Below are positions 558-26,016 of a DNA stretch of 64,000 nt, in pieces. The stretch is from Candidatus Moraniibacteriota bacterium. Its GTDB lineage: Bacteria; Patescibacteriota; Minisyncoccia; Moranbacterales; UBA1568. The stretch lies in the NCBI GenBank assembly GCA_013334575.1, contig JAAXXG010000001.1, positions 143,637-207,636 of the forward strand, given 5' to 3'. Under the pieces are notes generated by a model. The model saw only the letters and a program-made list of their open reading frames with translations. It was not told the DNA's origin and did not search any database. A program made the translations under genes and the position numbers. How positions within the stretch are numbered: the first letter of the stretch is position 1; the number at the start of each line of letters is the position of its first letter.

Positions 558-2108
558 CTATGCTCCTTCACTTTCAGTGCCCCACCGGAATACCAGCACG
601 TCGCCGCGGAGCAGCGGGTCGCTCTCGCGGACCATGTTCCGATACATGAAGTCCTCGGCCGCGCGGGACACGTAGTCCGTGTCATTGTCGGACATGACGA
701 CCCAGCCGGACGGATACTTCGCCATGAGGTTGGATAGTTCCTCTATGGAAAGTTTCGTTGTGGAAAGCTCGCCGCCGAAATCGTAGACCGGGAGACGCAT
801 TCCCGACCAGTAGTAATTGCGGAAATTTCGCGTCACGAGCGCGTCGCCCTCGATGGCATGCTTGCGGACATAGGCGAAGACTTTTCGATAGTTCGCCGTC
901 GATGCGGTATTCGTCCGATGATACGTATTGTTTTCCTGGAAGAAGTACTCCCACCGCGGAACGAAGACCGCGAGCGCGACGACTGCGGCACAGGCGGCGT
1001 ATTTCCATCTCGCCCCGAGGGATTCCTTCACGAATCGGACGACCTCGTAACCGCCGGCAGCGACCAGGATCATCAAAAACGGGAGTGCGAAGAAGATATA
1101 CTGCTCCCCTTCGTTGCGGCGCCAGAACCAGACCGCCATCACGAGCGGGACGAGGAACGAGACCGAGAGCCAGATCGCCTCACGCCCTTTTCCGGACCGC
1201 TTCGCGAGCGACCAGGCGCCGAGAACCGCAAGCGCGATGGCGAGCACCGGCTGCGTATAATCGCGGACCACGTACCCGAGGTATGAATAGTGATTGTCGA
1301 AAAAGACGAGCGTGCCGAGGGCATAGCGGACCTTTTCCGGAACGGCGACAAAGGCCACTGCCACTCCGAAAATGCCGAACGCGACGGTCACGCCGTATCT
1401 GTTCCGCACACCTTCCCCTTTTCGCCAGGCAAGAACCGCCATGACGAGAACATAGGCTCCGAACACCGGAACGATATTCGCCGTCAACTGGTGCGTCATC
1501 GCCGAGAGAACCCCGAACACAAGCATCGGGACGAGATAGGCGAGATTGAGTCCCGTCCGCTCCCGCACGGCACGCACCGGCCGCAGTTTCCCCTTGTATT
1601 CACGCTCATAAAACAGATAGAGCAGGGTCGAGAACGCGAGAAAGACCGGAAGGAACATCGAGTACATCCGCAACCGCCGATCGAACTCGAGTCCGGAAAC
1701 GGATACGGCGAACAGGAACGCCGCGAAGAGTCCCACCGTCCGCCGCCCGGAAAAAATCCATCCCGCCAGGAACACGAGCAGCACGGTCAGAACGCCCCAG
1801 ACGGCCGAAACGGTCCGTGCCGCCGCCTCTGTCGGCGGCAGGAACCGGAAGAGCTGCGCGACCTGCCACTTATAAACGCTCGCGCGTTCGTCGCGGGCAT
1901 CGTTCCCGTTCACGACCGCAGGCTTCCCGTCGTTGAAGTCCCACGCCTTCCACTCCCCTGTCTGGAAATATCCGTACGAGGAATTGATATCAAGGAACTC
2001 GTCCGCGACGAACGGATTGTTTCCGAGCCCCCAGAACCGGAGCACTGCCCCGAGAACGAGTATCGCGAAGAGCGCCTGATACTTCCCGTCCGTGAATATC
2101 CGTTTCAT
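558..2108 (-). CDS. GT-C fold membrane glycosyltransferase (ArnT/PMT_2-like, GT39/GT83)
   Basis: 516-aa polytopic membrane protein. The N-terminus has the RFWGLG...FVADEF...D motif typical of undecaprenyl/dolichyl-phosphate-sugar dependent GT-C transferases, with a soluble C-terminal domain. Confidence 0.75.
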   Translation of the reverse strand: MKRIFTDGKYQALFAILVLGAVLRFWGLGNNPFVADEFLDINSSYGYFQTGEWKAWDFNDGKPAVVNGNDARDERASVYKWQVAQLFRFLPPTEAAARTVSAVWGVLTVLLVFLAGWIFSGRRTVGLFAAFLFAVSVSGLEFDRRLRMYSMFLPVFLAFSTLLYLFYEREYKGKLRPVRAVRERTGLNLAYLVPMLVFGVLSAMTHQLTANIVPVFGAYVLVMAVLAWRKGEGVRNRYGVTVAFGIFGVAVAFVAVPEKVRYALGTLVFFDNHYSYLGYVVRDYTQPVLAIALAVLGAWSLAKRSGKGREAIWLSVSFLVPLVMAVWFWRRNEGEQYIFFALPFLMILVAAGGYEVVRFVKESLGARWKYAACAAVVALAVFVPRWEYFFQENNTYHRTNTASTANYRKVFAYVRKHAIEGDALVTRNFRNYYWSGMRLPVYDFGGELSTTKLSIEELSNLMAKYPSGWVVMSDNDTDYVSRAAEDFMYRNMVRESDPLLRGDVLVFRWGTESEGA

Positions 2109-2117
2109 AGGTTTCGG

Positions 2118-3923
2118 TTATCGGTCTTCTTCCCCGTCGGAATCGGCTTCATCATCCCACGACCCGGCATGACGCTGCCACCATCCGTTCCAGGTATATC
2201 GTTCGTTCGTCTTCGAGACCAGCGAATCGTTCGGTTTCGCATCGTCGTCGAAGACCTGCCGCTTCGCGGTGACCGCCTCCGTTTTCGGACGGAATTCTAT
2301 CATGATCAGCGTTCCGAATTCCCTCTTTCCGACAACGTCATAGGTCTTCAGATACTTCCTCATGCCGTCTTCGAGATCCGACTTCGAGCGGAGGATAAGG
2401 ACGTATATCCCTTCCTCGTAGGTTCCGGCAAGACCGAATACGTCGTTTCGGACACCGGAACGGTCCAGAAGGTATTTTATCGCACGACGATACTGAGGCT
2501 CGCTGTACATGTAAACGGGATATCCCGACTCGTCGGAACGGCTTTTCAGATATTTCACGATGTCGAGCTGCTGCGAGTACGTCACCCTGACCAACTCCTT
2601 AAGGATCCGGTCCGTCGGACTTTTCACGTTCTCGGTCGCTGCCCGCGAAAGCTGATCGAACCTGAGCGATAGGTACCAGAGATTCGAGACGGAAAACGTG
2701 ACGACAACGAGTGAAAACATGAGGAAAGATACCCGTTTCCAAGGCAGGATCCGCGTGGCTTCCTCATAGAGGAATCCGAGCAGCAAGAAGGGTATGGGAG
2801 CGGTCACAAGGAAAAAGCGCGGCGCGAAATCGTACGCGAGCGGCAAGAAGACCACGAACGGGACGAGAAACCAGATTCCCGAAAGGAGCAGCAAATCGGA
2901 TTTCCGCCGTTCCTTCTCACGCCACCAGAGACCGAGCAGGGAAGCGAGGCTCAGCAGCAGAAACGACAGGGAGCCCGCCCCGTACGGCCACCCCTTCTGA
3001 CACCGGGCATCACAGACGGCGTACGGACCGGATTCGCCTCGTCGGAAATCCGGAAAATCACCCCCTTCGTATCCGGTCGTCACGACCAGGTATCCCAGTC
3101 CGTATTCCGTCACGTCTTTCACGAGCTTCGCTCCGACCGAATGTGTCTCTTTTCCCGACTTCTCCGTTACTGCCGCCAAAAAGGCCTTTGAGTTCGCGGC
3201 TCCCGTCGCCACTTCGTTGAGGACGACCGGCACATACAAGACAAGCGCCACGAAGACGGCGGCGGCCCACGTCTTCCAGGAGAATCTAGGCCGCCTTATG
3301 ATCAGGAACACCACAAAAACAAGCGGGAGGGTCAGGAACGCGAGAAAATGGAGATGGGTCGAGAATCCGATCGAAAACGCCGCGAGTACGAACCATCCTC
3401 CGCGATGCCGTCCGTCCGGTTCGACGGATCGCAGAAGGGAATAGAATCCGAGCAGTGCGAAGAACGGGATCGGATTCGGATTCCAGGCGAACCGACCATA
3501 CATGACCAGAAACGCCGAGACGGAAAAGAGGAATGCGAGGAGAACGGATACCCGCGACGAGAAGTATCGCCGCGCGACGAGAAAGAAAAGGATGACGGAC
3601 GCAACGGAGAGGATCGGGATCACGGTCGCGACGCCGACCGGATCCTGCCCGAACAGGAGACCGCTCAGATACTCGAGGTAATAGAATCCGGGGCCCAGCC
3701 GAAGCGAGGTCCCGCCAGCCTTCATCCCGAGCAGGGTCAGCTCGCCGGGCCCTCCGACAAAGGCGTCGTCCACGACGCGCATGTCACGGGACTGATCGAG
3801 CTCGAAATGAAGCCAATCCGAAAAATGGTACAGACGAAGGAACGCGCCGAAAACAGTCACCAAAAAGAGGGCGAGAATCAACGCCTGCCGCCCTCCGAAA
3901 AAGGCTTTCTTTTCCCGGGTCAT
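2118..3923 (-). CDS. GT-C fold membrane glycosyltransferase paralog (ArnT/PMT-like)
   Basis: 601 aa with an N-terminal multi-TM region carrying 'HFELDQSRD' (DE/DxD-like loop-1 motif) and a C-terminal periplasmic-type domain. It lies 9 nt downstream of the 558-2108 stop, so the two are probably co-transcribed. Confidence 0.75.
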   Translation of the reverse strand: MTREKKAFFGGRQALILALFLVTVFGAFLRLYHFSDWLHFELDQSRDMRVVDDAFVGGPGELTLLGMKAGGTSLRLGPGFYYLEYLSGLLFGQDPVGVATVIPILSVASVILFFLVARRYFSSRVSVLLAFLFSVSAFLVMYGRFAWNPNPIPFFALLGFYSLLRSVEPDGRHRGGWFVLAAFSIGFSTHLHFLAFLTLPLVFVVFLIIRRPRFSWKTWAAAVFVALVLYVPVVLNEVATGAANSKAFLAAVTEKSGKETHSVGAKLVKDVTEYGLGYLVVTTGYEGGDFPDFRRGESGPYAVCDARCQKGWPYGAGSLSFLLLSLASLLGLWWREKERRKSDLLLLSGIWFLVPFVVFLPLAYDFAPRFFLVTAPIPFLLLGFLYEEATRILPWKRVSFLMFSLVVVTFSVSNLWYLSLRFDQLSRAATENVKSPTDRILKELVRVTYSQQLDIVKYLKSRSDESGYPVYMYSEPQYRRAIKYLLDRSGVRNDVFGLAGTYEEGIYVLILRSKSDLEDGMRKYLKTYDVVGKREFGTLIMIEFRPKTEAVTAKRQVFDDDAKPNDSLVSKTNERYTWNGWWQRHAGSWDDEADSDGEEDR

Positions 3924-3950
3924 CGTGATAGAGTGATGAGGATTCCGAAA

Positions 3951-3999
3951 GGCCGTTTTCGGCCGCCTGTCGGCTGAATTGTAGCCATTTTTCGAAAAA
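3951..3999. promoter_or_regulatory. Divergent-promoter region with a small hairpin (GGCCGttttCGGCC, 3951-3964) and a perfect 12-bp palindrome TTTTTCGAAAAA (3988-3999)
   Basis: An 88-nt spacer separates two divergently transcribed GT-C genes. The palindrome sits 12 nt upstream of the ATG at 4012. Seen directly in sequence. Confidence 0.25.
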
Positions 4000-4011
4000 C
4001 GAGCAACCGCT

Positions 4012-6279
4012 ATGACGCTATCGCAACGCGTTCCCGACCGAAAAACGACCGCCCTCGCCGTCGCTTCCCTTTTCTTCGCCGCGACCTCGTTCCTCTTCGT
4101 TCTCCGGTACTTCCCGGGAGTGCCCGCCCTCTCGTTCGCCGTCCCGAAAACCGCCTACCTGATCTCCCTTTCGGTTTCCGGACTTCTGCTGTTCGGCACG
4201 GTGTTTTTCTTTCACCCGTTCCGAAAAGTCGGCGAGTGGCTTCCCGCCCTGCTTCGATCGTTCGGTCTTCCGGCCATCTTCGCCGCTGTCGCATGGATCT
4301 CGAACGATGCGGTTCCCGACATCATAAGGATAGCCGTATCGTCCTACGGACTCGTCGCGATCCTCTGGTCCGTCCGTATACTCGCGAACCGCTACCGGGA
4401 AGATCTTCACGCTCCCCGGACGGACGAACCTTCCGTCGCCGGATGGATCCGAAAACAGGGGTGGAAACGCCTGCTTGCCGTCGCGGTCCTTTCCGCGGTC
4501 TTCTGCGTCACGGCGCTCCGCGATCTCGGACGGTTCGCGGCCGTCGACGAGGCACTCTGGCTCTACGGACGCATCCCGAAGTACTGGAACGCGCTCGGAT
4601 CGTTCGAGCCTTCCAAGACGAGCATCAGCGACAAGCCCGGCATCTCCGTCGCCCTGGCGACCGGCCCCTCGCTTCTGGCCGTTCCGGATCCCGTCGAATG
4701 GAAGGACTATCAGGGTGAGTCTCATGATATCGCCTGGTTCTTCTTCGTATTCCGGCTCCCGATCGTCGTTCTCGCGACCATTCTTCTTCCGCTCTTCTAT
4801 TACGTACTCGAGCGCCTCGTCCGGAAGACCGAGGCGATGTTCGCATTCGCGTTCATCGCGCTTTCCCCGGTGACCATAGGGATGACCAAGATCATCAACC
4901 CGGACTCCCTGCTGTGGATCTTCGTTCCGATGTCGCTCTTCTCGTACCTCGCCTACGTGAAACGTCGTCACGTCCGCTACCTCTTCCTCTCCGGGATCCT
5001 GCTCGGCCTCGCTCTCCTCACGAAGTACGTCGCGAATTTCCTCTTCGTCTTCGTGCTCGGGGCCATCTTCGTCGAATACGTCATTCGCAAAGAAGAAGAG
5101 CCGTTCCTTCCGTACCTGCGCCGTTCCCTCCTCGCCTATCTCGTCTGGACCGCGACCGCCCTCACGACGTTCTTCATCCTCTTCCCCGCAACCTGGGTAA
5201 AACCGAACAAGATACTCAACGCGACCATTTTCTCGCAGGCATTCGGAAACATAACCCCGCTCTTCATCGGACTGTTCGCCGTCATCCTCGCCGACACGCT
5301 CCTGAACCGCTCAAGGATCACCGAGACCGTCACCTCGTTCTTCCGGAACAGATCGTCGGCCGTCACGGCGTTCATAGGATTCCTCTTCGTCGCGCTCGTC
5401 GCCTTCGTCTGCATGGATGTCCTGCTCGGCATGCGTCCGTTCGACTTCATGGAGATCCTCGCGTCGCCGAAGACATCCTTCCATGCGGATAGCATCACGA
5501 GCTCCTACGTCTCGAACGCGTATCCGCTCGTTTTCGGCATCACGCCGACGGTCTTTCTCCTCCTGCTCGCCGCACCGTTCGTCTCGTCCCGGAAACGCCA
5601 CCGGGGATCGTCCGCGCAGAAAACGGTAGTCCTCGGATTCCTCTTCATACTCCTCTACTACCTCGGAACGACCCTGAACGAAGTCGCCGCCATCACCCGT
5701 TATCAGATCGTCCTCTATCCGGTTGCCGCCTCGATCGCCGGAATCACCCTCGGGCTCATCATCAAGGATCTCAAGGACGCGCTCCCGGAACGGCTTATGC
5801 GTTTCCGGGCGGCCGTCTTCGCCGGATTCCTCGTCATCGTCACCGTCTCCGGAATCTACTCGCTCGTCCGGACACCGTTCCCGCTCAGCTATGCTTCCTC
5901 GTTCCTTCCGCAGCCGTACAGCCTCGACGTAAAGGATATGGGTCCCGGAAGCTACCTTGCCGCGCAATACCTCAATTCCCTCCCCGACTCGTACAAGACC
6001 ACCATCTGGAGCGATAAGGACGGGGTCTGCAAGTTCTACGCCGGATTCTGCAAATCGGGGTTCTCCTGGGACGCGTACGAGCATGCCGACTTCTCCTATG
6101 TCGTCGTTTCCTCCGGTCGGGAAAGCCGCACCGTAAAGCGAGTGAATACCGCCCTCAGCGGACTGCGGCAGAACACCATCAGGTTCGACGAATACTACGG
6201 AAAGGCGGACCCTATCTGGGAACTCTACATCAACGGACGCCAGTCCCACTATGTCAGGATCTACCGGTTCGAACGCTGA
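4012..6279 (+). CDS. Large GT-C-like membrane glycosyltransferase (PMT_2 family-like), paralog of 6251-8143
   Basis: 755 aa and highly hydrophobic. It carries 'DEALWLYGRIP...DKPGISVALATGP' and C-terminal 'DGVCKFYAGFC', both mirrored in the next ORF (DEHYWVEERI...DKPGVSLALVSGP...YGVCEFFRGNC). Confidence 0.7.
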   Translation: MTLSQRVPDRKTTALAVASLFFAATSFLFVLRYFPGVPALSFAVPKTAYLISLSVSGLLLFGTVFFFHPFRKVGEWLPALLRSFGLPAIFAAVAWISNDAVPDIIRIAVSSYGLVAILWSVRILANRYREDLHAPRTDEPSVAGWIRKQGWKRLLAVAVLSAVFCVTALRDLGRFAAVDEALWLYGRIPKYWNALGSFEPSKTSISDKPGISVALATGPSLLAVPDPVEWKDYQGESHDIAWFFFVFRLPIVVLATILLPLFYYVLERLVRKTEAMFAFAFIALSPVTIGMTKIINPDSLLWIFVPMSLFSYLAYVKRRHVRYLFLSGILLGLALLTKYVANFLFVFVLGAIFVEYVIRKEEEPFLPYLRRSLLAYLVWTATALTTFFILFPATWVKPNKILNATIFSQAFGNITPLFIGLFAVILADTLLNRSRITETVTSFFRNRSSAVTAFIGFLFVALVAFVCMDVLLGMRPFDFMEILASPKTSFHADSITSSYVSNAYPLVFGITPTVFLLLLAAPFVSSRKRHRGSSAQKTVVLGFLFILLYYLGTTLNEVAAITRYQIVLYPVAASIAGITLGLIIKDLKDALPERLMRFRAAVFAGFLVIVTVSGIYSLVRTPFPLSYASSFLPQPYSLDVKDMGPGSYLAAQYLNSLPDSYKTTIWSDKDGVCKFYAGFCKSGFSWDAYEHADFSYVVVSSGRESRTVKRVNTALSGLRQNTIRFDEYYGKADPIWELYINGRQSHYVRIYRFER

Positions 6280-8143
6280 TCGGCCTATGACCTTCCCGCC
6301 CGTCTCCGATCGCGTCAGGACGGCGATACTCGCCTGTATGATCGCACTCTCGCACCTGGGCCTTGGGCTTCCGCATATCGGGTCCTTCCTGACGGCGGAC
6401 GAACACTACTGGGTCGAGGAACGGATACGGAACTATTTCGACGCCTGGACGGACCACCGATGGAAGAAAACGCTCATAAATGACAAGCCCGGCGTCTCGC
6501 TCGCGCTTGTCTCCGGACCGGTGCTCCTTTTTCATTCCGGGAACGCACTCGATTGCCGCATCGACGAAGGCCGTACCACCGGCTGCGACCCGGATACGAC
6601 TTCCCGGCTTTACGCCTCGTTCCGGATCCCGATTCTCGTCGCGAACGCCTTGCTGCTCGTCGCGATATTCTTCGCGATCCGCGCCTTCGCGGGAACGGCC
6701 GTCGCCTTCACGGCGGCGATGCTTTCTGCCGTCTCCCCGCACCTCGTCGGCATGTCGCAGATCGTCAATCCCGATTCCCTGCTCTGGTCTTCCGGATCAC
6801 TCGCGATCTTCGCGATGACCGCGTATCTGACGACCCTCAGGAAGCGACATCTCGTAGCGGCGACTCTCTCGTTATCGCTCGCGCTTCTCTCGAAATACGT
6901 CGCGCTCGTCATCGTTCTTTTTCTCCCGATACTGCTCCTCGGAATCCATCTGTCCGACGAAGATCCCGGAAGAACCGCCCGACGGTTCCCGAGACTCCTC
7001 GGAACGGTTCTCGCCTCGTCCGCCCCTCTCGCGATATTCGTCCTTGCGGCTCCGGGAGTCCTCTCGTCCGGCGAGCGCATCGTCGCATTCCTCTCCGCCG
7101 ATACCGGAAACATCCTGCTTCCCTGGAGCGTCTTCGCGACACTCCTTGCCGCCGCGGCCGCGATCATGTTCGCACGAATCCCCAAACGCGTCATCGAAGG
7201 AATCGGATTTGCGCTCCGCTGGCTATTGGCGGCAACAGGAATCATCCTCGTTATATCCGTCATGACACTCATGGTCGCCCGATTGGTCGATCCGACCTGG
7301 GACGACGAGATCTTTCGTCGCATTCCGTTCGACCTCAAGGATATCTCCGACGCAAGATACTATACGGACCGGCGCCTATCCCCGACAGACATCGCGGCCA
7401 TGGAGCTCTCACCGTTCGCCTACTCGCTTCCGGTCGCCGTGCTGATTCTCGGTACAGCCGCCCTGTTTAACCGTTCCTTGCGGGTCATACGTGACAGAAC
7501 GTCCGTCATTCCCCTTCTCATGGCACTCTTCATCGCGATAGAACTGGCCGCCTTCGCCGGATCAGGCATACAGGCCACTCCGCGATACCTCCTCCTGACC
7601 CTTCCCATATTCATTTACCTCGCCGCCGACGCGTCCGTCCGGATCGGAAGAACGCTGCACGGCCATCTTCCGGTACGACCGCGTTCCTTCACTCTCCCGG
7701 CTATCGTCGCACTTTCCGTCTTCGCCTCCGTTTCCGAGTCCGGAATCAACGCTCCGTTCCACGCGAATTTCGCCAACGCGCTCCTCCCGAAGGATGACCT
7801 TACGACCCACTCGTGGGGCTATGGCGGGTACGAGGCCGCACGGCACATCAACTCGCTTCCCGGCGCGGAACACCTCACGGTCTGGAGCGACTATTACGGG
7901 GTATGCGAGTTCTTCCGCGGAAACTGTCTCACGAACTACACCTTCGACCCCGAAACGACCAAGCCAGACTTGTACGTTCTGACACGCCGCGGCAGAATCC
8001 GGTACCTGTCGAGATACGACGATTGGGAACGGAAATCCGGACTGACCGCCTATCGGCATTACGATGACCCGAACCCCGCCTGGGAACTCGATATCGCCGG
8101 AAAGAAAGATAATTTCATCAAGGTTATCCGTTTGGATCAATAG
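6251..8143 (+). CDS. GT-C-like membrane glycosyltransferase paralog (tandem duplicate of 4012-6279)
   Basis: 630 aa with the same motif architecture as the upstream paralog. The ATG at 6251 overlaps the upstream gene by 29 nt. An alternative in-frame ATG at 6287 lies 7 nt after the upstream stop. Neither has a clear SD. Confidence 0.7.
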   Translation: MSGSTGSNADRPMTFPPVSDRVRTAILACMIALSHLGLGLPHIGSFLTADEHYWVEERIRNYFDAWTDHRWKKTLINDKPGVSLALVSGPVLLFHSGNALDCRIDEGRTTGCDPDTTSRLYASFRIPILVANALLLVAIFFAIRAFAGTAVAFTAAMLSAVSPHLVGMSQIVNPDSLLWSSGSLAIFAMTAYLTTLRKRHLVAATLSLSLALLSKYVALVIVLFLPILLLGIHLSDEDPGRTARRFPRLLGTVLASSAPLAIFVLAAPGVLSSGERIVAFLSADTGNILLPWSVFATLLAAAAAIMFARIPKRVIEGIGFALRWLLAATGIILVISVMTLMVARLVDPTWDDEIFRRIPFDLKDISDARYYTDRRLSPTDIAAMELSPFAYSLPVAVLILGTAALFNRSLRVIRDRTSVIPLLMALFIAIELAAFAGSGIQATPRYLLLTLPIFIYLAADASVRIGRTLHGHLPVRPRSFTLPAIVALSVFASVSESGINAPFHANFANALLPKDDLTTHSWGYGGYEAARHINSLPGAEHLTVWSDYYGVCEFFRGNCLTNYTFDPETTKPDLYVLTRRGRIRYLSRYDDWERKSGLTAYRHYDDPNPAWELDIAGKKDNFIKVIRLDQ

Positions 8144-8145
8144 AT

Positions 8146-17662: not shown

Positions 17663-17683
17663 CTTCTCGCGAACAAGAGAAAA

Positions 17684-17710: not shown

Positions 17711-17739
17711 TATTCGTATTGGGAACCGATTCACTCCCG

Positions 17740-18799: not shown

Positions 18800-19483
18800 T
18801 CAGGACGCGGCAGCTGCGGCGCAGGTCGCGCACGATGCATGCCGATCTCCGGAACAGATTCTTCCGGTAATGTCATCGACCCTCATGCGATACCATGCGA
18901 CGGTCCTGCACGTCGGATTCGTGATGCCATCCACGAATCCGGACTCGCAAAGCCAGTGAATGACCGCATTGACGGTTTTCAGTCCGGTCATACTGCGAAG
19001 AGACCCGGCAAACTCATCATGTCCGACCATCAGAAGGCCGTCATCGTCCGGTTCGGACAAAGCAGCCTCACGCGGCCACCAGAGAAACAGTCGGAGCAGG
19101 AAACGCCTGACGAAGGCTTGATCCTCCCGCCAGTCGGGACCGAAATGCCCCACGACTTCCGGAACGTCTTCCCTCCGAACAAAAATCAGGGAAGACCTCC
19201 CGGCGGACCCCGACCCACCGCAGCAGCAGTGCCCACCGTTCCGGTCGCTCTCCAGAATGGATCGCGTCAGGTCGGCATGCAACGTCGGCGAGACGGCGTT
19301 TCCGCTTGTGGGAACGAGATAGACGGGATAGGCGACCGGATAGCCGCTTACCACGACCGAGAACCGGAGCGCCATATCCGTCTTGGCCGGCTGCCGTGAG
19401 GACAACGTACAGACGCCGCCCAAGACCTCGTGATGAACAAGGAGACATCTGACCGCTCCACGGATGATGCCGAGGGGCGACAT
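18800..19483 (-). CDS. Hypothetical Cys/His-rich protein (motif GGHCCCGGSGS)
   Basis: Start at MSPLGIIRG (or MTRRGDMSPL, 7 codons earlier). Upstream of the His-rich protein on the same strand. GC3-rich codon usage supports a coding region. No family recognised. Confidence 0.45.
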   Translation of the reverse strand: MSPLGIIRGAVRCLLVHHEVLGGVCTLSSRQPAKTDMALRFSVVVSGYPVAYPVYLVPTSGNAVSPTLHADLTRSILESDRNGGHCCCGGSGSAGRSSLIFVRREDVPEVVGHFGPDWREDQAFVRRFLLRLFLWWPREAALSEPDDDGLLMVGHDEFAGSLRSMTGLKTVNAVIHWLCESGFVDGITNPTCRTVAWYRMRVDDITGRICSGDRHASCATCAAAAAS

Positions 19484-19668
19484 GTCGCCCCGACGTGTCA
19501 TACACGTAACAACAACCATGATACTAATGTTGAAGATTTGAAACGAACAAGAGAACAGACTCCGGGACATCCGAAGCCCGTTTATGATAAACCATTCTAT
19601 CCCATGCGTCAATATTCGATTCGCCCTCTACATAAACCAAATCGCCGAAAAATGACTGAAACTGGCAC

Positions 19669-19697
19669 TTGACAGAAATTATATAAGGGTGTATACT
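19669..19697 (+). promoter_or_regulatory. Near-consensus sigma70 promoter (TTGACA, 17 nt, TATACT)
   Basis: TTGACA at 19669-74, an exactly 17-nt spacer, TATACT at 19692-97, in an AT-rich intergenic region. Confidence 0.5.
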
Positions 19698-19703
19698 TTT
19701 TGT

Positions 19704-19773
19704 AGGTGTGTGTTCTTTCTTCGGATGGTTGTGTTGGGATGGGTGTCGCTCTCGCAGTGACACCCGTTTTTTT
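19704..19773 (+). ncRNA. Candidate ~70-nt small RNA (promoter to intrinsic terminator, no ORF)
   Basis: Predicted TSS ~19704. The transcript ends in the terminator GGGTGTC-(11 nt)-GACACCC plus 7 Ts. No start-competent ORF fits. The nearest protein-coding genes are both on the opposite strand. Confidence 0.4.
19741..19773 (+). terminator. Rho-independent terminator
   Basis: 7-bp perfect stem GGGTGTC/GACACCC with an 11-nt loop, followed by TTTTTTT. Confidence 0.7.
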
Positions 19774-19874
19774 ATGAAAACGTCCCCATCCGCGTACTCC
19801 GCCGTACACGGCCCATCATCCGACCCTCGGCATCCGTCCGAAACGGAAAGCCCGCCAAGTACCCCCCAACCGAT

Positions 19875-21281
19875 TTATTCCTCCTTCCGGACATACAGAT
19901 CCGGGAATACCGATGACTTCGAATAGTGTTCCGCAATGCTCGGGTTCTTCACCTTCACGAACGAGCTCGAGACGACCTTCGGCCGCTTCTCGTCGATCAG
20001 TCCGTAGATATCGTAATCATAGGGTCGGACAAGGCGATAGGAAGACAGGATGCCCGTCTTCGGTTTCACGGAAAACCAGAAATAGTCGACATCCCTTCGG
20101 AACAGGTTGAACTGTGCGTCACCGTCGTAGACAAGGTCGTCCGGTCCGGTCACGGAAAGGACGTATGACACCTTGTCGAGTTGTCCCCGGTTATCCTCCC
20201 ACAAATCGAAGAAGAAATATCCGGCGACCGGCAGAGATGCGAGCAGCATCACGGCGACAAACCGACGGTTCAGTCGCCGAGAACGGACGAGCGCCGCGGC
20301 CGCGACCATCGCTATCCACGGCATCGCGGCAAGGTAGTACTGCGGAAATGGCGTCCTGGTCACGAAGACGGTCGCCAGAAGTCCCGCCGCGAAAAACAGC
20401 GCGATATCCGGCTTCCGATTTCGGACGGCATGGACCGAACCGAACAGGAACAGGATCCACAGAAGCGGATTCTGCTCGATTGACCGAAGCAGGTACTTGT
20501 AGATCGGAAACGAATTGAGCAGGAGGGTGTTCAGCTGCCAGTTCGAAAAGAAATATTCCCGCCAGCCGAACGCCGAGGAAACGTACGCGACGAATCCCAA
20601 GAGAAGGATTACGAACGTTCCCGCGTAGAAGAGAATGTCACGCCACGCTGTCTTGCGCTTCCACAGACGGTACAGCAGCAGGAGGCCGATCAGGAACGCC
20701 GCGAATACCGCCTTCTGCAGGAACAGGAACGCCGCGAACAACGCGGCCGAACTCCCAACGAGCTTCGCGGCGGACGGCGTCCGAAAATGAGAAAGAAGCA
20801 ACGAGACCGAAATGAGTTCGAACAGGACGAGCGGAATATCCGGACGGACCTCGATTACCTTGGTCAGAAAGGTGACCGACGTCGTCAGGAAGAAGACCGA
20901 AAAGAGCGCCGTCTCACGGTCAAAGAGGGAACGCGCGATCCGATATGTCAGCAGGACGATGCCGACTGTTGCCGCAAGCGACAGGAGCCGCGCCACGATG
21001 ACGGCCGGAATGCCGGGACCGAACAGAGCGATCACCGGCGCAAGCACGTAATACGGCAAAAAATGATGCGTCTGGAGGAAATCGACGTATATCCGCTCCC
21101 CGGAAAGTATCTTCCAGGCGGAATGGATCGCCTCGAACTCGTCATGATTGAAGGCATGAAACAGTGATGATGCCACCCCCAGCAGTCCGAAAACGACGAT
21201 ACCGAATACGGCGACCGCCTTCGGTCCGTCCATTTTCCCTAATTCCATCCGAAATGGTTTCATAGGCCCGACATTCTTCAT
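19875..21281 (-). CDS. GT-C fold membrane glycosyltransferase (ArnT-like)
   Basis: 468 aa, polytopic. 'HAFNHDEFEA' is the loop-1 DE motif of ArnT/PMT-type transferases. Confidence 0.75.
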   Translation of the reverse strand: MKNVGPMKPFRMELGKMDGPKAVAVFGIVVFGLLGVASSLFHAFNHDEFEAIHSAWKILSGERIYVDFLQTHHFLPYYVLAPVIALFGPGIPAVIVARLLSLAATVGIVLLTYRIARSLFDRETALFSVFFLTTSVTFLTKVIEVRPDIPLVLFELISVSLLLSHFRTPSAAKLVGSSAALFAAFLFLQKAVFAAFLIGLLLLYRLWKRKTAWRDILFYAGTFVILLLGFVAYVSSAFGWREYFFSNWQLNTLLLNSFPIYKYLLRSIEQNPLLWILFLFGSVHAVRNRKPDIALFFAAGLLATVFVTRTPFPQYYLAAMPWIAMVAAAALVRSRRLNRRFVAVMLLASLPVAGYFFFDLWEDNRGQLDKVSYVLSVTGPDDLVYDGDAQFNLFRRDVDYFWFSVKPKTGILSSYRLVRPYDYDIYGLIDEKRPKVVSSSFVKVKNPSIAEHYSKSSVFPDLYVRKEE

Positions 21282-21384
21282 TCCGTTCGCACGTTCATGA
21301 TATCACGATATCCGCCTCCCGAGAGGAGCTCGACTCGCCCCTCCGAAAATGCTATTATTTCCCGGAAGATATCGGGATTCCCTC

Positions 21385-22380
21385 ATGAACGTCCTCGTCA
21401 CCGGCGGCGCCGGCTACATCGGCTCCCATACCGTCCGAAAGCTTCGCGATGCCGGGTACGACATCGCGATTTTCGACAACCTTTCGTCCGGACACCGCGA
21501 GGCCGTCCGGGACTTCGAATTGATCGAAGGCGACCTGGCGGACCGCGATGCGCTCCATCGGTTGTTCGCGGAACGAAAATTCGACGCGGTCATCCATTTC
21601 GCCGGCAGCATCGAAGCCGGCGAGTCCATGACCGATCCGTCGCGTTTCTTCCGGAACAACGTAACGAACGGCCTCAATCTTCTCGACGCGATGCTCGCGC
21701 ACGACGTGAAACGGATCGTCTTTTCCTCGACCGCCGCGGTATACGGCGAACCCGCCTCGATGCCGATCACCGAAGAGGCTCCCAAGGAGCCGACCAACGT
21801 CTACGGCCTGACCAAGCTCATGTTCGAACGGATCCTCGAGTCATACGACCGGGCATACGGACTGAAATCGGTATCGCTCCGGTATTTCAACGCCGCCGGA
21901 GCCGATCCGTCCGGAGATATCGGCGAAGCGCATCCTCGCGAAACGCACCTCATCCCGATCCTCCTCGAAACGGCACTCGGGCGGCGCGACGGCATCCGCA
22001 TTTTCGGCACCGACTATCCGACGCCGGACGGGACCGGTGTCCGCGACTACGTCCACGTATCGGACCTCGCAGACGCGCACGTCCTGGCACTCGATTTCCT
22101 GGAACGGGAAAACCGTTCCGATGCGTTCAACCTGGGGAACGGATCCGGCATATCCGTACGCGGGGCGATCGACGCCGTTCGACGCGTCACCGAAACGGAC
22201 TTTCCCGTCATCCAGGAAGCGCGTCGCGCCGGCGACCCCGCCGAACTCTACGCGAGCTCCGAAAAGGCGACCCGCGTCCTGGGATGGAAGCCGGCTCATC
22301 CGTCGATCGAGGATATGGTCCGGACCGCATGGAACTGGCACCGGTCGCATCCGGACGGCTTCGTAACCGAACGCGCATGA
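21385..22380 (+). CDS. galE: UDP-glucose 4-epimerase
   Basis: 'MNVLVTGGAGYIGSH' Rossmann N-terminus and the YxxxK catalytic 'YGLTKLMFE'. About 331 aa. Confidence 0.9.
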   Translation: MNVLVTGGAGYIGSHTVRKLRDAGYDIAIFDNLSSGHREAVRDFELIEGDLADRDALHRLFAERKFDAVIHFAGSIEAGESMTDPSRFFRNNVTNGLNLLDAMLAHDVKRIVFSSTAAVYGEPASMPITEEAPKEPTNVYGLTKLMFERILESYDRAYGLKSVSLRYFNAAGADPSGDIGEAHPRETHLIPILLETALGRRDGIRIFGTDYPTPDGTGVRDYVHVSDLADAHVLALDFLERENRSDAFNLGNGSGISVRGAIDAVRRVTETDFPVIQEARRAGDPAELYASSEKATRVLGWKPAHPSIEDMVRTAWNWHRSHPDGFVTERA

Positions 22381-22796
22381 AAGACGTCATAGCCGGGATC
22401 CTGCTTCGCCGCACCGACAAGACCGCCGTGCAGCTGTTGCGCTACCTCTTCGTCGGCGGATTCTCCACGGTCGTAGACATGAGCGCCTTCTATGCCATAC
22501 AACGCCTCTTCGGCGCCCATTACCTCGTCGCGCAGACCGTCGGCTTCATGCTCGGCATCACGGCAAACTATCTGCTCTCGATCGCCTGGGTCTTCCGGAC
22601 GACCGACGACCGGGGAAAGGAGATGGCCCTTTTCCTCCTCGTCGGAATAGGTGGACTCCTTCTCAGCTCTCTCCTTCTTTTTCTCCTCGTCGAAGTCGCG
22701 CATTTCTCCGCGTTCCGCAATATGGCAGCCAAGGCAGTCACGGTCATGATCGTCCTCGGCTGGAATTTCGGCATGCGAAAGAGATTCGTCTTCTAA
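22377..22796 (+). CDS. GtrA-family membrane protein (polysaccharide synthesis flippase-associated)
   Basis: 139 aa with 4 TM helices. 'LRYLFVGGFSTVVDMSAFYA' is the GtrA signature. The ATGA start/stop overlap with galE suggests translational coupling. Confidence 0.8.
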   Translation: MKDVIAGILLRRTDKTAVQLLRYLFVGGFSTVVDMSAFYAIQRLFGAHYLVAQTVGFMLGITANYLLSIAWVFRTTDDRGKEMALFLLVGIGGLLLSSLLLFLLVEVAHFSAFRNMAAKAVTVMIVLGWNFGMRKRFVF

Positions 22797-22808
22797 TAGA
22801 CCACCACT

Positions 22809-24221
22809 ATGGAACACGTCGACACCGTCATTTTCGGAGCCGGACCCGCCGGACTCGCCGCGGCCGGTCGCCTCGTCGGCAAAGGAAAATCCGTCATCGT
22901 CGTCGAGAAGGAAGCGCTCGTCGGCGGCATCAGCAAGACGCTCGAATACAAGGGGTACCGCTTCGACCTCGGCGGTCACCGGTTCTTCACCAAGGCGAAG
23001 GAAGTGAACGAACTCTGGGACCGGACCCTCGGGGACGACTTCATCGAACGTCCGCGACTCTCCCGCATCTACTACCGCAACCGGTTCTTCGACTATCCCG
23101 TCCGCATCCAGAACGTTCTCCGGAATCTCGGAATGGTCGAATCCGCCCTCATATCCTTCGACTACCTCCGCACCAAGCTCATGCCGCATCCGGAAGAGCG
23201 TACCTTCGAACAGTGGGTATCGAACCGCTTCGGACGCCGACTGTTCAATCATTTCTTCAAGTCATATACCGAAAAACTCTGGGGCATCCCCTGCTCCGAG
23301 ATCCAGGCCGAATGGGCGGCGCAACGCATCAAAGGACTGTCGTTCACGAGCGCCATCAGGTCGGCTCTCTTTCCGGACAAGACCGGAAAGATCAAGACGC
23401 TCATCGACAAGTTCCGGTATCCGAAACTCGGACCGGGCATGATGTACGAACGCATGGCGGATGACATCCGCAAGGCCGGCGGAACGATCCTCCCGGAAAC
23501 CGCCGTCATGCAGGTCCATCACGAGAACGGAACCGTGCGAAGCGTCGTCGTCCGCGACCGGAACGGCTCCGAACGGGAAATCTCCGCCGACCGGTTCATC
23601 TCTTCCATGCCGATCACCGAACTCGTAACGGCGCTCTCCCCGGCGGCTCCGGAACATGTCCTCGAAGCCTCCCGCGGCCTCACATACCGCAGCTTCATCA
23701 CCGCGAGCGTCATCCTCGATACCGAGCGTTCGTTCCCGGACACCTGGATCTACGTGCATTCCCCGGAAGTCAGACTCGGGCGCATACAGAACTTCAAGGC
23801 CTGGAGCCCCTACATGGTCGCCGACCCGTCCAAGACCGCTCTCGGGCTCGAATACTTCTGCACCGAAGGCGACGACCTCTGGACCATGGACGACCAGGAC
23901 CTCCTTTCGCTCGCCATGCGCGAACTTGAGGCGATCGGACTCGGCAAGGCGCCCCAGTTCGTCGACGGGTTCGTGGCACGCGTCCCGAAGGCGTATCCCG
24001 TCTACGACGCCGCGTACCCGGAGCGCCTCCGCGTCGTCCGCGAATACCTGTCGACCTTCCGGAACCTGCAACCCGTCGGCCGATACGGCATGTTCAAATA
24101 TAACAACATGGACCATTCCATCCTCACCGGACTCCTCGCCGCCGAGAACGTCCTTGGCGCAAACCACGACATCTGGGAAATAAACGCCGACCAGGAGTAC
24201 CACGAGGAACACAAGAACTAA
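22809..24221 (+). CDS. FAD-dependent oxidoreductase (amine-oxidase/HemY-like fold)
   Basis: 'DTVIFGAGPAGLAAA...VVEKEALVGG' dinucleotide-binding N-terminus. 470 aa. Confidence 0.75.
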   Translation: MEHVDTVIFGAGPAGLAAAGRLVGKGKSVIVVEKEALVGGISKTLEYKGYRFDLGGHRFFTKAKEVNELWDRTLGDDFIERPRLSRIYYRNRFFDYPVRIQNVLRNLGMVESALISFDYLRTKLMPHPEERTFEQWVSNRFGRRLFNHFFKSYTEKLWGIPCSEIQAEWAAQRIKGLSFTSAIRSALFPDKTGKIKTLIDKFRYPKLGPGMMYERMADDIRKAGGTILPETAVMQVHHENGTVRSVVVRDRNGSEREISADRFISSMPITELVTALSPAAPEHVLEASRGLTYRSFITASVILDTERSFPDTWIYVHSPEVRLGRIQNFKAWSPYMVADPSKTALGLEYFCTEGDDLWTMDDQDLLSLAMRELEAIGLGKAPQFVDGFVARVPKAYPVYDAAYPERLRVVREYLSTFRNLQPVGRYGMFKYNNMDHSILTGLLAAENVLGANHDIWEINADQEYHEEHKN

Positions 24222-24234
24222 AGATCCGAAACCT

Positions 24235-26016
24235 ATGCATGCCGCACGCGAACGGATTATCCGCCTGTACGGTTGCATTTCGGAGACGCTCGGACGGATC
24301 CGTCCGGAATTCCTATTCCTGACCCTCGTAGTACCGCTTTCCCTGGCGACGGCCTTCCTGACGCCGCCGCTGCAGGCACCCGATGAGACCCGGCATCTGT
24401 TCCGATCCTGGGGTATCGCAACCGGACAGGTTTTCTGCAGTCCTGGTTCAACGGTATCCGTACCGAAAAACCTTTTTACATTCGCGGAAACGTTCGAAAA
24501 GGGAGTTTCGGACGACGGACTTTTCCGATATTCGATGCTTTCGGACTGGAACCGCTCCGCATCGCTTTCCGGTCCGGAAACCCAGGTCTACACCCAGTTC
24601 TGCTCGTATAACCCGATCACGCACCTCCCGCAGGCCATCGGGATGTTCCTTGCGAATTCGGTCCACGGCTCGGTCGTCTCGACCTATTACGGCGCCTCGT
24701 TCGGAAATGCGATCGTCGCGATTTTCCTGATCTTCCTTGCCATCCGTCTCGTGCCCTTCGGAAAGACCTACTTTCTCCTTGCAGGACTGGCAAGCGGCAT
24801 CATCGGCATCGCGACCACCGTAAACGGCGACGCGCTCTCCATCGGAGGCCTGCTGTTCCTTGCGGCGCTTTTTCTCCGCATGTCGGACGGCAGAACGCTT
24901 GGAAGATACGACCTTCCGGTACTGCTCGCGGCATCGCTCCTGTTCATCCATGCCAAACCGGCATACATCGGATTCACAATGCTCGCGTTCCTGATACCCT
25001 CCCGCGCGTTTCCGTCCAAACGTTCATTTCTCTTTTTTCTCGCGACCTTTTTCGCCGCAAACATCCTCCTGGCGACAGTACTCGCCTCGTATGCCGATAC
25101 CGGATCCTACCTCCGACCCGAGGGAGTCGATCCGGCCGCGCAGGCCACCTTCATACGATCGCATCCCCTCCCGACGGCCGCCCTCATCGCAGAGGAAACC
25201 GTCACGAACCTGCCGCGATATATCGGAGCTAAGACTGGCCGATCCCTTCCCTATTACGCGGCCTTCGCGTTCGTCGTCCTGATGCTCGGCCTCGACGGCA
25301 TCCGTCCTTCCCGGCGCACCCGGATCGCACTCCCGCTGATCGTCTTCGGAACGGCCGCCCTCATCGAACTCTTGGAATACCTGTTTTGGAACGAGCCCGG
25401 CGCATCGAATATCCGCGGCATCCAATCCCGCTATTACTACGGCCTCCTCCCACTCCTTTTCCTCGCGGCCCACGCACCGTTTCGGCGCCTCGGCAGCATC
25501 TCGTTCCCGAACGGGCAGCGAATCATCGCGGTCACCGGCATCACGATTACGGTAGCAGCATCGTCACTCATCGGACTCGACGCGAAATACCACAAGACCC
25601 ATCTCGCCATAATACCGAACGGAACACCGGTTTCCATTGACCTCGGCGAATGCGCCATTAAGACGGACGACCTGTCGATCAGGCAGGACGGATCGGTCGA
25701 GACCCTCGCCGACGGTAACTACGCGGAACTCGACGCCTCGGGTCTCTCCGGCCTATCCTTCGAGACGACCGGAACGGGCGCTATCGGACTCCGCTACCGG
25801 TTCCGCGGGGACGAGAAATTCCCGAAGAAACCGGCCGACGACATACGCTCGACAAAACGCGTCTCCGTCGACCTCGATACGCTCGCCCAGCGGGAGGGTC
25901 GTCCCGTGGACCGGATTCGGATCACGTTTTCCGACAGGCCCGAAGCGTTTTCTGTAAACGGACTCACCGCCTATTACGCCGATTCATCCACATCCTACAC
26001 CTGCGGAAACAGGTGA
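24235..26016 (+). CDS. DUF2142-like integral membrane protein (putative GT-C glycosyltransferase)
   Basis: 593 aa, polytopic, with the N-terminal 'LQAPDETRH' (PDE motif) typical of DUF2142 proteins. Confidence 0.6.
   Translation: MHAARERIIRLYGCISETLGRIRPEFLFLTLVVPLSLATAFLTPPLQAPDETRHLFRSWGIATGQVFCSPGSTVSVPKNLFTFAETFEKGVSDDGLFRYSMLSDWNRSASLSGPETQVYTQFCSYNPITHLPQAIGMFLANSVHGSVVSTYYGASFGNAIVAIFLIFLAIRLVPFGKTYFLLAGLASGIIGIATTVNGDALSIGGLLFLAALFLRMSDGRTLGRYDLPVLLAASLLFIHAKPAYIGFTMLAFLIPSRAFPSKRSFLFFLATFFAANILLATVLASYADTGSYLRPEGVDPAAQATFIRSHPLPTAALIAEETVTNLPRYIGAKTGRSLPYYAAFAFVVLMLGLDGIRPSRRTRIALPLIVFGTAALIELLEYLFWNEPGASNIRGIQSRYYYGLLPLLFLAAHAPFRRLGSISFPNGQRIIAVTGITITVAASSLIGLDAKYHKTHLAIIPNGTPVSIDLGECAIKTDDLSIRQDGSVETLADGNYAELDASGLSGLSFETTGTGAIGLRYRFRGDEKFPKKPADDIRSTKRVSVDLDTLAQREGRPVDRIRITFSDRPEAFSVNGLTAYYADSSTSYTCGNR

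Follow-up and report, generated by a model that had tools for sequence, protein, structure and literature searches.

A probable composite cell-envelope glycosylation region with a conserved four-GT-C core in Candidatus Moraniibacteriota

Introduction

Multi-component transmembrane glycosylation systems described to date include GtrA/GtrB/GtrX, CsbB/GtcA/YfhO, GtlA/GtlB, CsdAB-CflA, and GtsABC (PMC8035078). Here, we analyze a 26-kb region in the metagenome-assembled genome of an uncultured Candidatus Moraniibacteriota bacterium that encodes machinery of this familiar type: six proposed membrane glycosyltransferases of the GT-C fold, together with nucleotide-sugar enzymes, glycosyltransferases of the GT2 and GT4 families, and flippase-like proteins. 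The region occupies the first part of a 64,000-nucleotide stretch of chromosome (hereafter, the window; GenBank assembly GCA_013334575.1, contig JAAXXG010000001.1, positions 143,637 to 207,636 of the forward strand). It had been noticed in an earlier inspection of the letters and translated open reading frames (ORFs), here called the sequence-only reading.

Related machinery can take several forms. In Rhizobium, a single bactoprenyl-phosphate-galacturonic acid (GalA) donor, supplied by RgtE, serves several ArnT-like paralogs, RgtA-D (PMC7663294). In the gpgSDF system of Pseudomonas aeruginosa, a GT4 enzyme attaches a sugar to a membrane lipid, and the flippase is predicted to be a UPF0104 protein; hexSDF of Clostridioides difficile, as cited in the same paper, likewise combines a GT4 with a predicted UPF0104 flippase (PMC12713373). 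Fusions of GT-B and PplT are common (bioRxiv 10.1101/2022.03.11.483950). In Lactococcus, two DUF2142 proteins have predicted roles in wall-glycan assembly, WpsI as a polymerase and WpsJ as the transferase of pellicle polysaccharide onto rhamnan (PMC12599335, PMC9746298).

The host of the region analyzed here belongs to the candidate phyla radiation (CPR, or Patescibacteria). Members of this group have genomes of about 1 Mb, are attached to other cells, and possess a surface coat that is largely uncharacterized. A locus of at least 15 kb that encodes four membrane glycosyltransferases and keeps its gene order phylum-wide is a strong candidate for making a principal envelope glycoconjugate. We found nothing relevant to such a GT-C locus in Moranbacteria or other CPR in the literature that was accessible to our search, which is weak evidence, as most subscription papers lie outside it.

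Results and Discussion

A core locus conserved across Moraniibacteriota

We read the 26-kb region as a composite cell-envelope glycosylation region with two modules, not a single pathway (gene numbers as in Table 1). Module A, the conserved core, spans 558-15075 minus a variable slot at 10256-11672. Module B is accessory and consists of g13, g18, and an operon (21349-26016) encoding GalE, a GtrA-family protein, a putative mutase, and a DUF2142 protein. Our best reading, to which we give a probability of about 0.55, is that the region combines a conserved assembly line for a glycolipid or lipoglycan, working on polyprenyl-phosphate (polyprenyl-P) sugars, with an accessory module for extracytoplasmic galactofuranosylation. 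The sequence-only reading had proposed one supply line leading from sugar activation to transfer. In outline this is right, as homology and fold support its general logic of cytoplasmic nucleotide-sugar enzymes, a polyprenyl-P GT2, a flippase-like protein, and several extracytoplasmic GT-C transferases, but the genes do not form one pathway.

A search based on an alignment of g03, using one genome per species, recovered 112 stretches with a relative of g03, nearly all of them from Moraniibacteriota (of 114 genome hits, 112 belong to this phylum); a scan of the same contigs with the single g03 protein gave nothing. Records labeled “uncultured Bdellovibrionales” group with the Moraniibacteriota set. 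We mapped the window proteins onto 79 related loci and counted gene presence in the 44 of these that are at least 20 kb long. The recurrent order is g01(-) g02(-), then g03(+) with or without g04(+), then g06(-) g10(-) g11(-) g12(-), often followed in relatives by g13(+), with or without a GalE-like epimerase(+) before it. Present in all 44 loci is g03, followed by g02 (42), g06 and g10 (40 each), g11 (34), g01 (33), and g12 (32), with the counts for g11 and g12 limited by the 10-kb flank around g03. Core order and orientation are held across ~43 independent Moraniibacteriota species loci, and thus the clustering is not a product of chance. Since the order survives protein identities that drop to 38-50% in relatives, the core locus must be old. 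The GT2 enzyme g12 is 69-80% identical in relatives.

In relatives, the 10-kb surroundings of g03 contain 1-6 GT-C genes (median four), and the four core GT-C genes of this window are the typical number. What had been described as an expansion is therefore an old, syntenic, phylum-wide set. The two adjacent genes g03 and g04 had been recognized as a diverged paralog pair with shared motifs, and profile comparison bears this out (hhalign probability 100%, E = 2e-115). Lacking the N-terminal extension of g03, g04 adjoins it in roughly half of the relatives. It is 40-76% identical to its own orthologs and only ~30% identical to g03; thus, the duplication predates the divergence of the species. 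Its start, previously placed at 6251, is likely 6287 according to the gene call.

Upstream of g01, at a place that would lie just before position 1 of the window, all three related loci examined (L001, L002, and L004; L001:1788-3278) carry a gene for a MurJ/Wzx/SpoVB-type flippase together with tmk, separated from g01 in L001 and L002 by a small unannotated gene. This flippase gene may belong to the conserved locus.

Six GT-C glycosyltransferases, including a Pfam-orphan family

Five of the six proposed GT-C proteins exceed curated Pfam thresholds, the exception being g01. PMT_2 (gathering cut-off 26.1 bits) is matched by g02 (45.1), g03 (42.7), g04 (34.4), and g18 (46.4). The PMT family PF02366 (cut-off 22.7) is reached by g03 (38.4) and g02 (24.4), while g04 fails (19.7) and g01 and g18 have no match in the Pfam scan. 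DUF2142 (PF09913; cut-off 30.1) is matched by g22 with 112.8 bits over profile positions 5-395 of 395. All six proteins have an acidic motif immediately after the first core transmembrane (TM) helix (ADE, LDQ, VDE, ADE, HDE, and PDE), which takes the DE form in five of them. The six genes that the sequence-only reading had singled out are thus real GT-C genes, by Pfam for five and by structural model and hhalign for g01. Its title had announced six ArnT/PMT-like paralogs plus DUF2142; the coordinates give five plus DUF2142.

The g01 protein has no domain-family match and is publicly annotated as “hypothetical protein.” An alignment of its orthologs nevertheless matches the g02 family over the N-terminal 235 residues (hhalign probability 94%, E = 1e-7), and an AlphaFold2 model built with 24 homologs has a pLDDT of 85.6 and a pTM of 0.84. 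In this family, D36-E37 of the first outer loop is invariant. The model and the profile match point to g01 being a GT-C fold glycosyltransferase of a family invisible to Pfam. This family has 138 representatives among 1.84 billion at E <= 1e-30.

The largest of the set, g03, is extended at its N-terminus by ~150 residues with further TM helices, and its C-terminal domain is extracytoplasmic and contains Cys. Its orthologs (~755 amino acids, 40-58% identity) occur throughout Moraniibacteriota, and V178-D179-E180 is invariant in their alignment. The identical protein in the public record is named “phospholipid carrier-dependent glycosyltransferase,” and the same sequence is found on a Logan contig (SRR11449211). 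PDB sequence searches with g03 and g22 returned no matches, and fold was therefore assessed from models. The AlphaFold2 model of g03 (pLDDT 79.5) matches STT3, AglB, Pmt4, ALG9, and ArnT in Foldseek, where only GT-C enzymes have significant E-values. In g22, the PDE motif follows TM helix 1 of ~9. Comparison by hhalign without secondary structure did not link g18 or g22 to other GT-C families, and so the GT-C assignment of these two rests on Pfam.

A proposed assembly line on the core locus

A GT4 gene, g10, which the sequence-only reading had overlooked, is the neighbor of the UPF0104 gene g06 (PF03706, 118.5 bits; TIGR00374, 66.3 bits) in 40 of the 44 loci; here, the two are parted only by the 1.5-kb variable slot. 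The closest solved relatives of the GT4 are MshA (1.5e-30), PimB' (1e-21), and PimA (1e-18). By analogy with the gpgSDF and hexSDF systems, the former an experimental precedent for such a pair, the conserved placement of a GT4 beside a UPF0104 gene suggests a glycolipid acceptor or anchor, and the pairing extends the idea behind those systems.

Between the GT4 and the GT2 enzyme g12 lies a UDP-glucose 6-dehydrogenase (Ugd) gene, g11 (TIGR03026, 438 bits; cut-off 189.8), predicted by homology to make UDP-glucuronic acid (UDP-GlcA). Because Ugd sits between both enzymes in almost every relative, UDP-GlcA or a derivative is a likely substrate of g12 or the GT4. Full-length matches link g12 to ArnC (9hwj; 2e-45), the cyanobacterial GtrB sll0501 (3e-29), and the Pyrococcus dolichol-P-mannose synthase (DPMS; 3e-23). 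This end-to-end alignment identifies g12 as a predicted polyprenyl-P glycosyltransferase, although it stays below the equivalog cut-offs for ArnC and PgfS.

From these assignments we propose the following sequence for Module A. On the cytoplasmic side, the PimA/PimB'/MshA-type GT4 would add a sugar, possibly GlcA, to a membrane lipid. The resulting glycolipid would be flipped outward by g06, which resembles the MprF flippase domain; GpgS/GpgF and HexS/HexF have been proposed to work in this way. In parallel, the ArnC/GtrB-like g12 would load a sugar onto polyprenyl phosphate. At the outer face, the GT-C enzymes g01-g04 could then take the sugar from its lipid carrier for building or decorating a glycolipid or lipoglycan. 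In form, this scheme resembles lipomannan assembly (PimA/B, then Ppm1, then PimE and MptA/B/C) or the Rhizobium RgtE/RgtA-D system.

An accessory module with a UDP-galactopyranose mutase-like flavoenzyme

Module B varies far more among relatives. The genes for g18, GtrA, g21, and g22 occur in 0-3 loci of the related set, with a single ortholog of g18 among the 79 loci (L011, beside g13), while g13 has 21 orthologs in related loci, often paired with a GalE-like epimerase. In the window, the GalE-GtrA-g21-g22 operon is tightly packed (gaps of -4, 12, and 13 nt), and g19 is an equivalog-level match to GalE (TIGR01179). The closest solved relative of g13 is a dolichol-P-mannose synthase (5mlz; 4e-12), and models for PpgS, AglJ, and dolichyl-P-hexose transferase match it over their full length, below cut-off. 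It is probably a second polyprenyl-P sugar synthase.

The third gene of the operon, g21, had been called an FAD oxidoreductase. It is a flavoenzyme, but that name is too vague: its similarities are specifically to UDP-galactopyranose mutase (UGM), pointing to galactofuranose (Galf) instead of a generic redox step. The protein belongs to NCBIfam NF005548 (PRK07208.1-4; 687 bits), a model named “hypothetical protein.” It matches Aspergillus fumigatus UGM (AfUGM) at 3e-23 as a single sequence and at 5e-35 as a family profile; Trypanosoma cruzi UGM matches the profile at 1.6e-29, with residues 11-458 aligned to profile positions 5-455. Solved bacterial UGMs match g21 at 1e-16 to 1e-11. Among solved structures, only UGMs match beyond the dinucleotide-binding N-terminus, and carotene desaturases and amine oxidases, which come next, align with ~70 N-terminal residues only. 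In a 15-member cross-phylum alignment of the g21 family, the GGH His loop and Y162, W167, R182, W315, Y317, R327, Y419, R447, Y453, and N457 (AfUGM numbering) are invariant; in the AfUGM active site, the corresponding positions include, besides the His loop, the Arg, Tyr, and Trp residues that bind UDP and the sugar. By homology, g21 is a specifically UGM-like nucleotide-sugar enzyme, with a predicted role in interconverting UDP-galactopyranose (UDP-Galp) and UDP-Galf; it may alternatively handle another NDP-sugar.

The PRK07208-type family is very large (>8000 homologs). Its 120 best-scoring members are 54-83% identical and come from Geobacter, Planctomycetes, Firmicutes, and others, and current annotations range over generic oxidoreductase, protoporphyrinogen oxidase, and phytoene desaturase. 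In one case (P0337), the UGM-like enzyme is fused to a Pfam GtrA domain. A Geobacter metagenome-assembled genome has overlapping genes in the order GT2, mutase, small TM protein, membrane protein, PMT_2, PMT_2, and a metagenomic contig (L088) repeats an operon of epimerase, GtrA, mutase, and an 11-TM protein. We compared 32 metagenomic mutase loci flanked on each side by at least 2.5 kb. A neighbor of at least 400 amino acids with at least six TM helices occurs in 15 of them, and a small multi-TM neighbor or a fusion in 11. The large neighbors number 24, of which 10 are Pfam GT-C proteins (eight PMT_2, two Alg9-like), three are Wzx-like, and two are UbiA-like.

Two further observations concern this family. 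Many metagenomic members, namely P0337 and those of L111, L099, L102, L132, L154, L093, and L096, are 595-685 amino acids long with 1-3 predicted TM helices; in P0337, the GtrA domain makes up the extension. One UGM-like locus (L128:9946-11829) has a membrane sulfatase/LtaS-EptA-type protein.

For Module B, the simplest chemistry suggested by the homologies would run from UDP-Glc through UDP-Galp to UDP-Galf, with GalE and the UGM-like g21 carrying out the two conversions. The add-on operon thus probably supplies Galf, and the genomic context suggests that Galf is passed through a lipid carrier. The DPM1-like g13 would put the sugar on polyprenyl phosphate, the GtrA protein g20 would assist its translocation, and the DUF2142 protein g22, a PMT_2 GT-C, or both would transfer it outside the membrane.

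A broader idea, which we offer tentatively and regard as somewhat unlikely, is that PRK07208-type flavoenzymes in general are membrane-coupled mutases of UDP-Galp or a related NDP-hexose that feed polyprenyl-P-Galf to GtrA and GT-C proteins, in Moranbacteria decorating the lipoglycan of the four-GT-C locus. The nearest published concept is that of pentofuranose three-component systems (PMC11127046), to which such a mutase-GtrA-GT-C system would, if real, be the hexofuranose counterpart. A pentofuranose three-component system was rejected for the window itself, which lacks both a UbiA-type polyprenyl-phosphoribose synthase and a phosphatase. If the idea holds, the lipoglycan could be a major, so far undescribed CPR envelope polymer, and relabeling a very large family of “oxidoreductases” as UGM-like enzymes linked to GtrA and GT-C systems would imply extracytoplasmic galactofuranosylation.

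Directly after g22, at 26908-35836, lies a glycan cluster of low GC content (0.43-0.50) that encodes Gmd, a GDP-sugar epimerase/reductase, two GT2 enzymes, a GT4, an FkbM methyltransferase, and a Wzt ATPase. The latter, an ABC ATPase at 34577-35836, carries a Wzt_C glycan-binding domain; we looked for a Wzm permease beside it and found none. The cluster looks horizontally acquired. Because g22 adjoins this Wzt-type cluster, it may alternatively serve as a ligase for an exported polymer.

Weighing the alternatives

Several points weigh against an assembly line with a galactofuranosylation module. The data establish enzyme classes and folds, and from these we infer the sugars, the lipid carrier, the acceptors, and the products. 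Within the core, the Ugd product could be consumed by either the GT2 or the GT4 or by the two together, and the acceptor of the GT4 could be soluble or linked to polyprenyl diphosphate. A domain scan found no deacetylase equivalent to GpgD or HexD in the locus, and there is no ArnA, ArnB, or ArnD among the Pfam and NCBIfam assignments of the ORFs scanned at 1-26 kb. Within the accessory module, g21 misses the curated thresholds of both GLF (PF03275; 19.3 versus 26.3 bits) and TIGR00031 (48.7 versus 303.75), for which reason we call it UGM-like and not UGM. Only about half of the sampled mutase loci have an obvious GT-C or GtrA neighbor, and two metagenomic mutase loci (alignment A4) carry UbiA prenyltransferase and HAD genes, hinting at other chemistry. 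UDP-Galf could also feed cytoplasmic GT2 or GT4 enzymes, for example those of the 27-36 kb cluster, without lipid-P-Galf. The literature that we searched, with the limits given above, contains no polyprenyl-P-Galf-dependent system, which again is weak evidence.

We consider it rather unlikely that the region is instead a protein O-glycosylation system, in which g01-g04 and g18 would act like actinobacterial or eukaryotic PMTs, or like TfpW, on secreted, S-layer, or pilus proteins, with the GT4 and UPF0104 pair acting on lipids in an unrelated role. The PF02366 scores of g02 and g03 and the PMT-like DE motif in loop 1 would fit such a system, as would the score of g12 against the model for PgfS of the Streptococcus mutans protein-glycosylation system (148 bits, below cut-off). 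Yet the Pfam scan of the region's ORFs detected no MIR or PMT_4TMC accessory domains, PMT_2 is found as well in GT-C enzymes with teichoic acid and wall polysaccharide as acceptors (PMC8035078), and a lipid-anchored product better explains the strict linkage to GT4, UPF0104, and Ugd. That linkage can be viewed from another side: the conserved adjacency of Ugd and an ArnC-like GT2, together with ArnC being the nearest solved structure to g12, recalls the charge modifications made by Arn and Rgt enzymes. Here, GlcA derived from Ugd (or GalA, following epimerization) would be loaded onto polyprenyl phosphate by g12, and the GT-C enzymes would add single residues at different positions of an existing envelope molecule such as a lipid, peptidoglycan, or teichoic-like polymer, with no new glycan being built. 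Rhizobium, with RgtE and RgtA-D/F, offers a precedent for several GT-C paralogs on one uronic-acid donor (PMC7663294), and in relatives g12 often has a GalE-like epimerase beside it or, in L058, a UXS/ArnA-C-like decarboxylase. This proposal is nonetheless quite doubtful, as it leaves the conserved GT4 and UPF0104 pair unexplained, ArnA, ArnB, and ArnD are missing, and the scores fall far below the cut-offs for ArnC (NF007986; 157.9 versus 529 bits) and ArnT (NF009784; 18.9 versus 567). Moranbacteria are also not known to make lipopolysaccharide (LPS), and the acceptor would have to differ. By these thresholds and absences, the locus is not a member of the Arn pathway. A teichuronic-acid system was likewise rejected, the models for TuaB, TuaC, TuaD, and TuaG scoring far below their cut-offs.

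For the accessory module, we weighed the possibility that g21 is an oxidase acting on a lipid-linked sugar, forming a two-step epimerase with the short-chain dehydrogenase/reductase (SDR) g19. In mycobacteria, such a pair, DprE1/DprE2, is encoded between the GtrA-family gene Rv3789 and the GT-C gene aftA, in the order Rv3789-dprE1-dprE2-aftA. The gene categories and order of our operon (SDR, GtrA, FAD enzyme, GT-C) mirror this arrangement, and fusions of g21-family proteins to a GtrA membrane domain exist. The two metagenomic loci with UbiA-family and HAD genes also resemble polyprenyl-phosphoribose pathways (PMC11127046). However, g19 is GalE at the equivalog level (446 versus 262 bits), g21 falls in the UGM branch of flavoenzymes and not in the VAO/DprE1 fold, and the UGM residues that bind the UDP diphosphate and uridine are invariant across its family, as is the His loop. 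Given these conserved UDP-binding residues and a true GalE, a DprE1-like role is less likely than that of a nucleotide-sugar mutase, and we rate it as very improbable.

Gene map, passengers, and other features of the window

Our gene map (Table 1) is based on Pfam, NCBIfam, and PDB sequence searches. Every gene named in the sequence-only reading is present, with coordinates that are exact or a few codons off, and Pfam/NCBIfam scores uphold its calls of Ugd, GalE, GtrA, LPG-synthase-TM, metallophosphoesterase, NUDIX, and two GT2 genes. Its ORF at 21297-22796 is in fact two genes, GalE and GtrA. Neither the NUDIX hydrolase nor the metallophosphoesterase, which it had counted as components, belongs to the conserved set: g09 is found in none of the 44 loci and is absent from all 79, and g05 occurs in nine of the 44 at varying positions. 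In this window g05 is co-transcribed with g03-g04, and it is merely an occasional member of the locus.

Table 1. Features of the glycosylation region, with positions in the window
Feature	Position	Strand	Assignment and details
g01	558-2108	-	GT-C fold; Pfam-orphan; ~10 TM helices and C-terminal alpha/beta domain
g02	2118-3923	-	GT-C, PMT_2, GT39/GT83-like; 9 nt from g01, shared minus-strand operon
g03	4012-6279	+	755-aa GT-C, PMT_2/PMT
g04	6287-8143	+	GT-C, PMT_2
g05	8146-9189	+	Calcineurin-like metallophosphoesterase; Metallophos 50.9 bits; 2-nt gap after g04
g06	9202-10152	-	LPG_synthase_TM/UPF0104 (PplT, MprF-flippase-domain family); ~7 TM helices
Variable slot	10256-11672		Weak nucleoside-deoxyribosyltransferase (NDT)-like ORF g07, weak HIT-like ORF g08, NUDIX g09
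g09	11118-11672	-	NUDIX hydrolase; 58 bits; last in g12-g11-g10 string
g10	11644-12795	-	GT4 (GT-B, retaining); 383 aa from ORF Met55; Glycos_transf_1 145.9 bits
g11	12797-14122	-	Ugd (UDP-glucose 6-dehydrogenase); 441 aa from ORF Met99; three UDPG_MGDP_dh domains
g12	14134-15075	-	ArnC/GtrB/DPMS-type GT2; catalytic domain and two C-terminal TM helices
g13	15661-16410	+	Soluble DPM1/PpgS-type GT2; 249 aa; Glycos_transf_2 78 bits
Block	16411-19874		3.4 kb without recognizable genes
g18	19875-21281	-	GT-C; 468 aa, PMT_2; divergent from GalE operon
g19	21349-22380	+	GalE; operon gene 1 of 4; TIGR01179 446 bits (cut-off 262); Epimerase 220 bits
g20	22377-22796	+	GtrA-family small membrane protein; PF04138 80.1 bits; start overlaps GalE stop (ATGA)
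g21	22809-24221	+	UGM-like flavoenzyme, PRK07208 family; long, eukaryote-type
g22	24235-26016	+	DUF2142 GT-C; PF09913; final gene of operon

The block at 16411-19874 is a passenger, as are the three genes of the variable slot (NUDIX, HIT-like, and NDT-like). In the variable slot, the NDT-like g07 recurs only in L006 (65% identity, same position) and the HIT-like g08 only in L007 (77% identity), while g09 shares 29 nt with the stop end of the GT4 gene, which has the same orientation. The block has a GC content at third codon positions (GC3) of 0.57-0.67, against ~0.8 in neighboring genes, and gave no Pfam or NCBIfam match and no tblastx match in the 79 related loci; g13 and g18, which flank it here, are directly adjacent in L011. 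It is probably an insertion, and we do not count it as part of the system. An ORF inside it at 17177-17662 (+) opens with a lipoprotein-like signal (LLIIGC). Exact-sequence look-ups for the ORF at 17740-18876, g18, and g21 found no public match.

Further along, the window encodes CysS, DnaB, RecR, SecD, and RNase P RNA, housekeeping genes that identify it as chromosomal DNA. In the SecD homolog (60139-61842, -), residues 144-232 form a parvulin-type peptidyl-prolyl isomerase (Rotamase) domain that separates the SecD_1st subdomain from the P1-head. It is unusual for a foldase to be built into this accessory protein of the Sec translocon. The RNase P RNA (50602-50951, -) exceeds its gathering score of 100 only slightly, with 102.3 bits, which fits a divergent CPR lineage. 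Two regions of a 1177-amino-acid protein (51908-55441, -) can be assigned, one as an LCAT-like lipase/acyltransferase and one as DUF7379; the rest has no annotation.

Comparison with known systems

Three features of this region are new: the compact, phylum-wide architecture of four GT-C genes with GT4, UPF0104, Ugd, and GT2 in a CPR lineage; the Pfam-orphan GT-C family of g01; and the large, misannotated UGM-like family linked to GtrA and GT-C systems. By its predicted components, the locus would functionally belong to the multi-component transmembrane glycosylation systems. All three of their sequence-level features are present: a GT2 of the GtrB/ArnC type with C-terminal TM helices (g12), a flippase-like protein of the GtrA family (g20, with the UPF0104 protein g06 in addition), and GT-C proteins, here of the PMT_2 type with 9-15 TM helices, that have an acidic motif in the first outer loop. 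However, known systems have one GT-C gene, whereas there are 4-6 per locus here; the core has UPF0104, GT4, and Ugd in place of GtrA; one GT-C family lies outside Pfam; and the host is a CPR bacterium.

The mycobacterial and corynebacterial lipomannan-lipoarabinomannan pathway (PimA/PimB' GT4 enzymes, the GT2 Ppm1, and the GT-C enzymes PimE, MptA-D, Emb, and Aft) shares with the scheme proposed for the core a lipid GT4, flipping, several GT-C enzymes, and a polyprenyl-P-sugar synthase, and PimB' and PimA are among the closest solved relatives of g10. Corynebacterial LM-B is anchored on GlcA-diacylglycerol, which fits the linked Ugd. In contrast to that pathway, the core shows no sequence-level orthology to Pim, Mpt, or Aft enzymes and has no inositol or GDP-mannose genes, and it forms one compact syntenic locus, whereas actinobacterial lipomannan genes are scattered over the genome. 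The Rhizobium Rgt system (Ugd/Exo5, the LpsL epimerase, RgtE, and RgtA-D/F) and the Arn pathway (Ugd, ArnA-D with ArnC, ArnE/F, and ArnT) both resemble the core in linking Ugd to an ArnC-like GT2, and Rgt also in having several ArnT-like GT-C enzymes. The differences from Rgt and Arn are those already weighed: ArnA, ArnB, and ArnD are lacking, the ArnC and ArnT thresholds are missed, and an LPS acceptor is not expected.

With gpgSDF and hexSDF, the core has in common a GT4 lipid glycosyltransferase beside a predicted flippase of the UPF0104/AglD2/YbhN type (PMC12713373). Unlike those systems, it has no deacetylase, and its pair is embedded with Ugd, a polyprenyl-P GT2, and four GT-C genes, which suggests further elaboration of the lipid. 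For the accessory module, the long eukaryotic UGMs of A. fumigatus and T. cruzi are the natural comparison. They share with g21 whole-protein homology, the GGH loop, and the substrate-binding Arg, Tyr, and Trp residues, and GalE is adjacent here. Identity is nevertheless only ~20-25%, the GLF and TIGR00031 thresholds are missed, the family is PRK07208, and its members are genomically coupled, and sometimes fused, to GtrA and coupled to GT-C. Finally, g22 resembles WpsI and WpsJ of the lactococcal cwps locus as a polytopic DUF2142 protein in a wall-glycan setting, with an ABC-transporter-type glycan cluster adjacent. WpsI and WpsJ are proposed to polymerize or ligate oligosaccharide units linked to undecaprenyl diphosphate (Und-PP); g22 instead shares its operon with GtrA and with enzymes that activate monosaccharides, an arrangement that suggests the transfer of single sugars.

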